Shown here one piece after another: positions 36,325-63,478 of a DNA stretch of 64,000 nucleotides (positions are counted from its first letter, which is position 1; every line of letters starts with the position of its first letter). The stretch lies in IMG/VR virus record IMGVR_UViG_3300024999_000042; one strand, given 5' to 3'. The notes beneath the pieces are model-generated. The model ran no database searches, was not told the origin of the DNA, and saw only the letters and a list, made by a program, of their open reading frames with translations. A program made the position numbers and the translations under genes. The stretch comes from a virus.

Positions 36325-37098
36325 TCAACGCTTTTTAAGATTTAATAAAGAAATAATAAACTCTTTACCATTTTCAGTAATTAGTATTTGATTATATTTA
36401 TAACCTTGTTGATTTATATTTTCTTTTCCGTTAATAAAATAACCATCACTTATATATTTTTCGTTTATGTAAAATGAATTATTTTCATGTTTGAATATAT
36501 TCTTAAATTCTAAAACCTTATATAGTCCACTTCTAGAAAAATCTATTATATATCCATCTGCTATCAATTCTTCCACTATTGACACACAATTTAACATTGT
36601 ATTTAACTTCTTTTTCTTAGGAGTAGTATTTACGACAACAGTAGATTTAATATTTATTTTTGCTTTAGGTTTTAATTCTTTAGGTTTCTTATTTGGTAAA
36701 ACCCCATTAAACGCTATTAATCTTTTTAAGTATATTGAATCAACTTTAGCACTTAAAATAACTCTTGCTCCACTCAACACTTTTTCAACCGTATTTTCAA
36801 TGTTATAACCGTTTGTTATGGAATTATATTTATTAATATATGTACCTTCTACATATATTAATTGCATTGTTGTTTTGTATTGTGTTTGTTGATTTTTTAC
36901 CTCTTCTACTATATCAAATGTAAAATTATTTTTACCGTAAGTATTCCAATCTCTTTGGAGTTTATAACTGTGGTGTTTATTGCTACTTAAATCTTCTATA
37001 TGCACTTCCCATCGTTTTTCTATATCGTTACTCTCTCCCATATACACTTTCCCATTTGCTTTACATTCAATTTTATAAATTCCTCTTGTCTTTTCCAT
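36325..37098 (-). CDS. GIY-YIG endonuclease with KilAC-like C-terminus
   Basis: GIYKIEC..NGKVYMGES..IEKRW..H, LQRDW, GYN; C-terminal LITENGKEFI. Confidence 0.85.
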   Translation of the reverse strand: MEKTRGIYKIECKANGKVYMGESNDIEKRWEVHIEDLSSNKHHSYKLQRDWNTYGKNNFTFDIVEEVKNQQTQYKTTMQLIYVEGTYINKYNSITNGYNIENTVEKVLSGARVILSAKVDSIYLKRLIAFNGVLPNKKPKELKPKAKINIKSTVVVNTTPKKKKLNTMLNCVSIVEELIADGYIIDFSRSGLYKVLEFKNIFKHENNSFYINEKYISDGYFINGKENINQQGYKYNQILITENGKEFIISLLNLKKR

Positions 37099-37166
37099 TT
37101 TTACACGTCCTTTTCTTTTTTTTTATTATTTTTGTTCTATATTTTTGTCCTTTTAGTAATATAAAA

Positions 37167-37232
37167 AACTAAATGGCAAAGGAAAGGACACCTTCTTTTT
37201 AATGGATGATCAGTCCATTAAGCCATTTAGTT
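37167..37232 (-). ncRNA. Putative structured leader RNA, copy C
   Basis: 11-bp closing helix, UGAUCA-loop hairpin, UGUCCUUU loop complementary to two AAAGGAC repeats including the SD. Confidence 0.7.
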
Positions 37233-37372
37233 AAAATTATCAAATCTGATGTAAAATATTAGAATCGTCAAGGTTGGGTGATTCTCTCAAAGTGTTGCTA
37301 TATAAGCATATTTCCAAATATCAATAATCATATCAAAAGTTAGTTTTCTGGGATTGAGATAAGATGCACTTA

Positions 37373-63231: not shown

Positions 63232-63274
63232 TCTAAATTCCTTCTTTCATTTTTATTTTGTCAATCATAAATAA

Positions 63275-63478
63275 TCATCTATTTCTAACACACCACTGAC
63301 TGTACACATCTGAGCTATCGTTAAACCCAAATTTAAACCAGACTCTTTTTGTTTTAGGATGAATCCCTGTGGATTTTGCCATAACCCCATTTTCCATATA
63401 GAATGATGCTTGCTCTGGATTATAGATAAATACATATCTTTCTTCATCCTTATTTTCTTGTTTATTTTGTTCTGTCAT
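63275..63478 (-). CDS. Small DUF5659-like protein
   Basis: FIYNPEQASFY...GIHPKTKRVWFKF...VYSQW; start MTEQNK after AAGGAAGTG SD. Confidence 0.65.
   Translation of the reverse strand: MTEQNKQENKDEERYVFIYNPEQASFYMENGVMAKSTGIHPKTKRVWFKFGFNDSSDVYSQWCVRNR

Follow-up and report, generated by a model that had tools for sequence, protein, structure and literature searches.

The sequence analyzed here is a stretch of viral DNA of 64,000 nucleotides (nt) from IMG/VR record IMGVR_UViG_3300024999_000042, referred to below as the window, which has a G+C content of 29.8% and carries nearly all of its genes on the minus strand. A 274-nt gap between a tyrosine integrase gene and a GIY-YIG homing-endonuclease gene contains element C, a predicted three-way-junction (Y) RNA in which the apical loop of one hairpin, P3, is complementary both to a proximal downstream site and to the Shine-Dalgarno (SD) sequence of the GIY-YIG gene. 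Coordinates are positions in the window; the Y element and the GIY-YIG gene lie on the minus strand, which was read directly, and the coordinates were confirmed by pattern search. The features of the locus, from 5' to 3' on that strand, are as follows.

38470-37373, minus strand: tyrosine integrase gene (Pfam PF00589), 5' of the leader
37234..37244, minus strand: 5' flank TTTGATAATTT(T), a possible extended -10-type promoter from which the start would fall at the 5' edge of P1
37167..37232, minus strand: three-way-junction (Y) RNA (minimum-energy and centroid fold, covariance model, covariation in all three helices)
37232-37222 with 37177-37167, minus strand: P1 closing helix, 11 bp, AACUAAAUGGC with GCCAUUUAGUU
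37221-37214 with 37206-37199, minus strand: P2 hairpin, 8 bp, UUAAUGGA with UCCAUUAA
37207..37213, minus strand: P2 apical loop CUGAUCA, containing the palindrome UGAUCA
37194-37191 with 37182-37179, minus strand: P3 hairpin, 4-5 bp, AAGG with CCUU
37183..37190, minus strand: P3 apical loop UGUCCUUU, the putative private anti-SD
37161..37166, minus strand: U run directly 3' of P1 (UUUU, then AU), a terminator-like tail or linker (direct reading)
37146..37153, minus strand: site 1 (putative decoy) AAAGGACA, located 13 nt after P1 and complementary to the P3 loop over 8 nt
37107..37113, minus strand: site 2, the SD AAAGGAC, complementary to the P3 loop over 7 nt, with one further possible G-U pair
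36325..37098, minus strand: GIY-YIG homing-endonuclease gene, 257 amino acids (Pfam PF01541, E = 8e-11; PHROG homing-endonuclease families)

A structured leader RNA followed by a GIY-YIG gene had been drawn at this position in the initial annotation. The sequence of the RNA was found exactly on the minus strand, the Y shape was both the minimum-energy and the centroid structure in RNAfold, and the Pfam and PHROG matches listed above agreed with the assignment of the gene. The 74-nt element alone had a predicted folding energy of -23.1 kcal/mol, compared with a shuffle mean of -10.1 kcal/mol (z = -5.22), and none of 200 shuffles was as stable. The U tract following P1 is U4, or six U when the two P1-paired U are included. 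The SD was unpaired in the minimum-energy fold of the leader and lies nine nt before the AUG (37098). No match to Rfam 15 was obtained for the whole window at gathering thresholds; under permissive settings around the element, the best subthreshold matches were to microRNA or PreQ1 models on the wrong strand (E >= 1). A scan for tRNA and transfer-messenger RNA found none. A loose descriptor search for Y shapes with a U run gave 19 minus-strand and 12 plus-strand matches, with only elements A and C prominent, and was thus too permissive to be used.

Complementarity of the P3 loop to two downstream sites

Pairing of the P3 loop with site 1 over 8 nt and with the SD AAAGGAC over 7 nt, as proposed from the sequence, was recovered by pattern search. 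The intervening spacer had been described as nearly pure A/T, a fair description given about 6 G/C in about 54 nt outside the two sites. In 2,000 shuffles of the 135 nt after P1, two matches of the observed quality (8 and 7 nt) arose with a frequency of 0.001. AAAGGAC occurs just 7 times on this strand of the window and serves as the SD at the GIY-YIG gene only. The predicted duplex energies of the P3 loop were -8.8 kcal/mol with site 1 and -8.7 kcal/mol with the SD site. An extended pairing of the SD into the 3' arm of P3 (11 of 12 nt in the window) was considered incidental because it is lost in one variant of the element (contig L059).

The same arrangement was found in relatives of the element, which come from uncultured contigs of related low-GC groundwater phages (designated G001, L001, and so on; G001 is IMGVR_UViG_3300024999_000053). 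In six unrelated loop types, the P3 loop matches site 1, located 9 to 21 nt after P1, and a second site, located 27 to 54 nt after P1. The second site is the SD in five of the six; the sixth, L181b, has an SD-like GGAGG there, and no canonical start codon lies close by. The loops are listed below with a flanking or closing nucleotide where this is part of the match.

C: P3 loop UGUCCUUU; site 1 AAAGGACA; site 2 (SD) AAAGGAC
L001: P3 loop UGCUCUC; site 1 GAGAGCA; site 2 (SD) GAGAG
L003: P3 loop ACUCUC; site 1 GAGAGU; site 2 (SD) GAGAG
L008: P3 loop ACCUCCAU; site 1 AUGGAGGU; site 2 (SD) UGGAGGU
L181a: P3 loop ACCUCCAA; site 1 UUGGAG; site 2 (SD) UUGGAGGU
L181b: P3 loop AAUCCUAA; site 1 UUAGGAU; site 2 (SD-like) UAGGA

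Two targets for the loop were thus present in the C variants, in five further family members with different sequences, and at a second locus, B, described below. Site 1 was kept as AAAGGACAA in every C variant. Across the loop types, the frequencies with which shuffled sequences reached the observed two-site matches ranged from <= 0.0005 to 0.077. When every loop was compared with every leader, the cognate assignment was the single best of 720 permutations, with mean matches of 7.0 nt (cognate) versus 3.4 nt (noncognate) in the site 1 zone and 5.8 nt versus 4.3 nt in the SD zone. The tightest covarying partner of the P3 loop is therefore the decoy, 9 to 21 nt after P1. At both sites, the matches reach past the SD core into gene-specific flanks (AAAGGA+C, GGAG+UGU, GUU+GGAG, and CAUA+GGAG), and GGAGUGU and AAAGGAC act as SDs solely at genes with a matching loop. 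Taken as comparative evidence, these patterns indicate that the P3 loop has been selected for complementarity to both a proximal site at a fixed distance and the SD region.

Two other approaches were discarded. Counts of loop-target matches that ignored genes or were based on folds consisted mostly of AT-only noise, and a leader peptide, represented in some variants by a short GUG-initiated open reading frame after site 1, was absent from the window, and its frame was not kept.

A simpler leader at locus B

At locus B, the homologous position of which was fixed by a conserved 20-nt anchor in five contigs, the leader is a simpler hairpin without P2. Its loop and both downstream sites change together across relatives, as follows.

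Window: loop ACACUCC; GGAGUGU twice
G001: loop CUCCAAC; GUUGGAG twice
L181, L182, and L183: loop UACUCCUAUG; CAUAGGAG twice

L181 and L182 have CAUAGGAG in common and different downstream genes, which argues against a DNA operator for the product of the gene itself. Directly upstream of the variable anti-SD hairpin, at approximately 31727-31685 of the window (minus strand), lies a further hairpin, UAGCAAAUCA-UUGGACGCUU-UGGUUUGCUA, preceded by TGATAGTTT; the window shares it with L028/L180, L181, L182, and L183, and it was kept almost base for base in five contigs.

A family of three-way-junction leader RNAs

Exact-pattern scans identified the C leader with sequence differences in G001/L035, L041/L044, L036/L042, L043, and L059. 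P1, the P3 loop, and both target sites were invariant across these C-type variants (six variants for the P3 loop), and P2 showed compensatory changes (UUAAUGGA/UCCAUUAA, UAUGGG/CCCAUA, and AAUGGA/UCCAUU). In L059, compensatory substitutions at two pairs turned the P3 stem from AAGG/CCUU into AGAG/CUCU and left the loop as it was. The same three helices were obtained when RNAalifold was applied to the C variants aligned simply with MAFFT. A scan of the contigs for P1 arms yielded at least 120 chance inverted repeats and was of no use.

Starting from the C variants, a covariance model refined in two iterations (R1 to R3) retrieved divergent members in L001 (460-527), L003 (2551-2622), and L008/L009 (5508-5575), as well as two in L181 (7734-7671 and 2984-2912). 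In total, the covariance-model searches found 11 distinct family members in related phage contigs, with RNAs 65 to 70 nt long. In a nine-sequence alignment that was itself fitted to the model, 98.3% of cells were able to pair, and both partners had changed in 15 of the 20 pairs; no shuffle of 500 attained any of these values, and partners slid by 1 to 3 columns paired in 30 to 51% of cells. The element thus belongs to an undescribed family of three-way-junction leader RNAs in low-GC groundwater phages. Junctions and loops differ freely among members, no conserved unpaired nucleotides of the kind expected of a riboswitch-type binding pocket were found, and what is kept is the pairing, the P2 palindrome, and the flanks. 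The R3 model scored 81 bits on the minus strand of element C versus 17.8 bits on the plus strand, and G-U pairs were present in all three helices; both observations favor an RNA transcribed in the sense of the gene over a signal in duplex DNA.

Element C had been presented as one copy of a leader repeated in the window as elements A, B, D, and E. This did not hold at the sequence level: no sequence copy of C was found among the repeats within the window, and the R3 model gave only 20.8 bits for element E (E = 0.017) and a nonsignificant 12.3 bits for element A. Element E, at 62267-62211 (minus strand), was the sole other marginal match in the window, and its hairpin loop, CUUGAUCA, holds the UGAUCA palindrome of C. 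A further Y element was observed in G001 at approximately 63240-63349, with P1 AAGCAGAC/GUCUGCUU, P2 loop AGGCC, and P3 loop CGCCUU, followed by a U run, AAGGCA, and the SD AAGGCG. It has the same design and was missed by the covariance model.

Palindromic P2 loops

All seven distinct types of P2 loop contain a palindrome of at least 4 nt, compared with none of the six P3 loop types (Fisher exact probability, ~6e-4). The palindromes are UGAUCA, GAUC, AGCU, UAAUUA/AUUAAU, UUAAUUAA, and UCGCGA, of which those made up of A and U only are individually weak evidence. The P2 loop of element C, with UGAUCA, is a self-complementary apical loop of the kind that forms kissing complexes of the dimerization initiation site type. 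The presence of palindromic P2 loops in every member is compatible with the proposal, made from the sequence of element C, that two leader RNAs could act as a dimer. In the window and G001 as a whole, the palindromes GATC, AGCT, GTAC, and CATG occur at approximately 0.5 to 0.7 of their Markov expectation (GATC, 85 observed versus 182 expected); GATC-containing palindromes are nevertheless found in several P2 loops.

Promoter-like and terminator-like sequences

The 5' flank TGATA(A/G)TTTTAC precedes 8 of the 11 family members, whose P1 sequences differ, and is also found at the 5' edge of the unrelated leader at locus B. Transcription probably starts at this conserved TGATAATTT motif just 5' of P1; as an extended -10 element the motif is only suggestive, because its short form was also found inside genes. 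No conserved -35 element was found in the family. A sigma-70 promoter between site 1 and the SD was also considered and was represented only by weak, unconserved hexamers. In the A/T spacer between the two pairing arms as a whole, the -10-like hexamers (such as TATATT after P1 and AATAAT 15 nt after site 1) were weak, and none was convincingly conserved. A scan of IMG/VR for the 5' motif together with GTWTTT gave no covariance-model match in the first 100 of 117 loci. Elsewhere in the window, TTTGATAATTTT is located at 12112-12101 (minus strand), 39 nt upstream of the start of a gene (12073-10967), in a short gap without a Y element, where it would fit a promoter element of wider use in the phage.

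In five of six contexts, the module is preceded at a distance of 10 to 45 nt by a canonical hairpin terminator; in the window, none precedes it. The element therefore probably starts its own transcript instead of closing an upstream one. In L003, a simple terminator and then a divergent Y element were found at the homologous position after the integrase gene. The stretch of the window between the integrase stop codon and the leader (37372-37245, minus strand) is conserved with L003 at approximately 2440-2500 (AGCAACACUUU ... AUUUUACAUCAGAUU). It contains a hairpin, the arms of which differ yet pair (AGAAUC/GAUUCU in the window versus AAAAUCCCA/UGGGAUUUU in L003), and may represent a site of attachment or resolution, or else a further small RNA.

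At its 3' end, the Y element resembles an intrinsic terminator in that a stable helix ends directly at a U run on the transcribed strand, both in the window and in all C variants. It is not a simple G+C-rich hairpin, and the terminator scan, whose consensus called for at least 5 stem pairs, at least 3 of them G-C, and a 3- to 8-nt loop, did not report it: P1 encloses 44 nt with two hairpins, and the six pairs nearest the U run are all A-U or U-A except for one C-G. The run comprises 4 to 6 U in all C-type variants and is degenerate in divergent members (e.g., UAUUUUAUAU), so that termination is plausible for the C type and not a constant of the family. The other intergenic structures of the window are mostly ordinary hairpin terminators. 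Among its intergenic gaps, one of 315 nt folds into several long hairpins and contains a perfect 36-bp tandem duplication (2426-2497).

Downstream genes and genomic context

The genes predicted downstream of the leaders are mostly free-standing homing endonucleases and antirepressors. C-type leaders precede the GIY-YIG gene (window), genes for Ant-like antirepressors (G001, L041, and L059), and a MUG113/T5orf172 gene (L042). GIY-YIG endonucleases were assigned downstream of the leaders in the window and L001 by family search and in L181b by eye only; DUF4379/HNH-type endonucleases were assigned in L181a by Pfam and in L008 by eye only, from a 48-amino-acid fragment. The gene after the L003 leader encodes a DEAD-like protein. 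For the genes after elements A, B, D, and E, Pfam gave no confirmation of a nuclease identity. Two GIY-YIG genes, at approximately 2900-2830 (minus strand) of L181 and 1440-1500 of L024, apparently lack ATG, GTG, or TTG after the SD, the in-frame codons being only ATT or ATA; in L181, a 13-bp tandem duplication (AATTATAATAGAC twice) lies between the SD and the GIY-YIG reading frame.

The conserved C module extends from TGATAATTTTAC (~12 nt before P1) to ATGGAAAA, and everything beyond is unrelated. This module of approximately 140 bp has sharp borders, is present once per genome, and was found in different neighborhoods, with different flanks and unrelated genes behind it. In the window, 140 nt separate the leader from the integrase gene. 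The same GIY-YIG gene with a base-for-base identical leader was found on 8 groundwater metagenome contigs, where variation is uninformative because the leader is the same on all of them. No Rfam match indicated a group I intron housing the GIY-YIG gene, and the neighboring genes, encoding the integrase and an Ig-domain protein, are whole. No relatives of the GIY-YIG protein were found in IMG/VR. Among isolated phages, a weak similarity of the integrase to that of Bacillus Tsamsa-like phages was detected, and there was no match to the leader.

Discussion

The reading favored here, judged to have about an even chance of being correct, is that the Y element is a cis-acting leader controlling translation by means of an anti-SD loop that is private to its gene and can pair with either a decoy or the SD. 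Under this reading, the Y element would be the 5' leader of the GIY-YIG gene. Pairing of the P3 loop with the proximal decoy would form a pseudoknot and leave the SD free, and pairing with the SD would block the 30S subunit. The leader would in this way set the translation level of selfish or potentially harmful proteins, such as homing endonucleases and antirepressors. The U run that follows the AU-rich P1 base in C-type leaders may also act as a partial intrinsic terminator or attenuator, so that only a fraction of transcripts would reach the gene.

Control of this kind has precedents. T4-type phages restrain I-TevI, I-TevII, I-TevIII, segB, and Aeh1 mobE by SD sequestration on particular transcripts (PMC2988022). 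As in those ribosome-binding site (RBS)-sequestering structures, a phage RNA would pair with the SD of an endonuclease gene (GIY-YIG or HNH) and keep translation low or timed, putative terminators and promoters lie close to the gene, and the upstream RNA is complementary to the endonuclease SD (UGUCCUUU, 7 nt plus G-U). In T4, the SD lies within one simple, very stable hairpin that is relieved by a late promoter between the arms. In the Y leader, by contrast, the SD is not in a local hairpin, and the apical loop of a three-way junction would pair at a distance with a single strand; the leader also has a duplicate of the target as a putative decoy and, in P2, a palindromic loop. A second comparison is with the PeSLs of phages RB49 and phi1, compact promoter/stem-loop/SD cassettes located before shuffled accessory genes (PMC2839356). 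Like these, the Y element is an intergenic cassette of plastic regions, with a promoter-like motif and a stem-loop, that reaches from an upstream stop codon to the SD and start of a variable accessory gene, and the C module recurs before different accessory genes with sharp borders. PeSLs are present as approximately 50 near-identical repeats per genome, each with a sigma-70 promoter and a single stem-loop (PMC2839356), whereas Y elements are few per genome, differ in sequence, form a three-way junction, and lack a conserved -35. Loop-target complementarity such as that of the Y elements has not been described for PeSLs.

Outside phages, staphylococcal RNAIII and the Rsa small RNAs bind SD regions through C-rich apical loops, and RNAIII requires two contacts on rot mRNA. 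The UCCCCUG motif in the 3' untranslated region (UTR) of icaR is documented as an anti-SD motif that pairs with the SD from elsewhere in the mRNA (PMC3868564). The Y leader shares with these RNAs a pyrimidine-rich, anti-SD-like unpaired loop and a predicted short loop-to-strand contact at the SD region. Those RNAs have a common motif (UCCC) that is directed at several targets or works between the UTRs of one mRNA; Y loops, in contrast, are private and lie in their own leader with a cis decoy. In the transposase genes of IS10 and IS50, fold-back pairing of the RBS protects against read-through from outside. There, too, the upstream RNA of a selfish gene pairs with its own RBS on unwanted transcripts, in a simple linear fold-back without the junction, decoy, or terminator-like tail of the Y leader. 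Intrinsic (Rho-independent) terminators likewise have a helix followed directly by a U run on the sense strand of an intergenic gap; they differ from the Y leader in its branched 44-nt insert, its AU-rich base, and a U run that is degenerate in half of the family. Occlusion of the SD of selfish phage genes by leader RNA is thus a known principle, and the Y architecture is unusual and not in Rfam.

Several observations weigh against the cis reading. The SD matches of L001 and L003 are just 5 nt long, and the nine-sequence pair counts come from an alignment fitted to the model. In a crude, filtered count of loops complementary to the initiation region of the next gene, which was unbiased on 120 random bacterial loci, G001 showed a modest genome-wide enrichment (10 such genes versus 2, 5, and 3 in controls), and the window alone showed none that was significant (2 versus 0, 3, and 4). 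The genes for the closest homologues of the GIY-YIG protein (48 to 60% identity) have short or different upstream regions without a Y leader. The leader is thus an optional component of the endonuclease cassette. Finally, the decoy is nearer to the loop than the SD is and pairs as strongly, so the decoy should win in cis; a pure cis model predicts a free SD and needs a trigger.

The main rival, which is doubtful as a sole explanation and may complement the cis model, is a trans-acting small RNA. Most transcripts would stop at the U run and release a Y RNA of approximately 70 nt without its own decoy, and its P3 loop could bind either or both of the SD and the decoy on mRNAs arising by read-through or from a separate promoter, perhaps aided by kissing of P2 loops; copy-number-dependent repression of the nuclease would result. 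The U run after P1 in all C variants is consistent with such a product, as are the confinement of palindromes to P2 (7/7 versus 0/6 in P3), the suitability of two target sites for two loops, and the upstream terminator (5/6 contexts) with the 5' promoter-like motif, which suggest a discrete transcription unit. In Gram-positive bacteria, small RNAs pair with SD sequences through C-rich apical loops, and the icaR motif is documented to pair with an SD from outside the 5' leader (PMC3868564). On the other hand, the U tract is weak in divergent members, termination at an AU-rich P1 base may be inefficient, seven to eight base pairs are marginal in trans, B-type leaders have two sites and no P2 hairpin, and the fixed 9- to 21-nt spacing between P1 and site 1 points to a pseudoknot in cis.

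Purely structural and DNA-level roles are less likely, because the matches reach gene-specific flanks and covary and because the helices tolerate G-U pairs. A structural end module, in which the Y and a loop-decoy pseudoknot would serve as a terminator, insulator, or nuclease-resistant cap, is considered unlikely. The resemblance between SD and decoy would then be a by-product of both being purine-rich, SD-like sequences. The better covariation of the decoy than of the SD zone fits this view, as does the anti-SD-like core of all loops (CUCC, CCUCC, or UCCU), which gives some SD match for free, and the remaining intergenic structures in the window are for the most part ordinary hairpin terminators. 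It accounts poorly for matches that extend past the SD core at both sites, for flanks that change together with the loop at the homologous locus, and for the use of GGAGUGU and AAAGGAC as SDs solely at genes with a matching loop. Very improbable is an element acting as DNA, whether as repeated operator half-sites bound by a protein, as a recombination site beside the integrase gene, or as a gene-shuffling cassette like the PeSLs. The sharp borders of the ~140-bp module, the unrelated genes behind it as with PeSL cassettes (PMC2839356), and the tyrosine integrase gene 140 nt away in the window would suit such an element. However, the helices keep pairing through compensatory and G-U changes, a G-U pair being an A-C mismatch on the other strand; the sense strand has by far the higher model score; and the motif overlaps the SD in every case. 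Both the motif and the downstream genes differ between homologous loci, and L181 and L182 share CAUAGGAG before different genes, so that no single covarying protein is available.

A combination of cis and trans action, in which the Y RNA would be both the leader and a released small RNA, is given a small chance. Terminated copies would pair with read-through leaders via P2; the P3 loop of the mRNA would hold the decoy and that of the partner would clamp the SD, so that translation of the nuclease would fall with increasing leader RNA and hence with phage or plasmid copy number. If true, this would be a same-strand, two-loop, two-site dosage sensor without a described counterpart.

Free-standing homing endonucleases and antirepressors are a risk to the phage that carries them, and how they are restrained outside the T4 group is little understood. 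The leaders described here suggest a design rule, which recurs with unrelated sequences and in which an anti-SD loop private to its gene is combined with a fixed-distance decoy in cis and a second loop that is palindromic. Since each loop and its targets are private to their own gene, such leaders might serve as independent translational regulators. If the cis reading is correct, SD sequestration would be extended to a three-element, possibly dimer-dependent device, and the Y element would provide an annotation marker for accessory-gene cassettes in uncultured low-GC phages and phage-plasmids.

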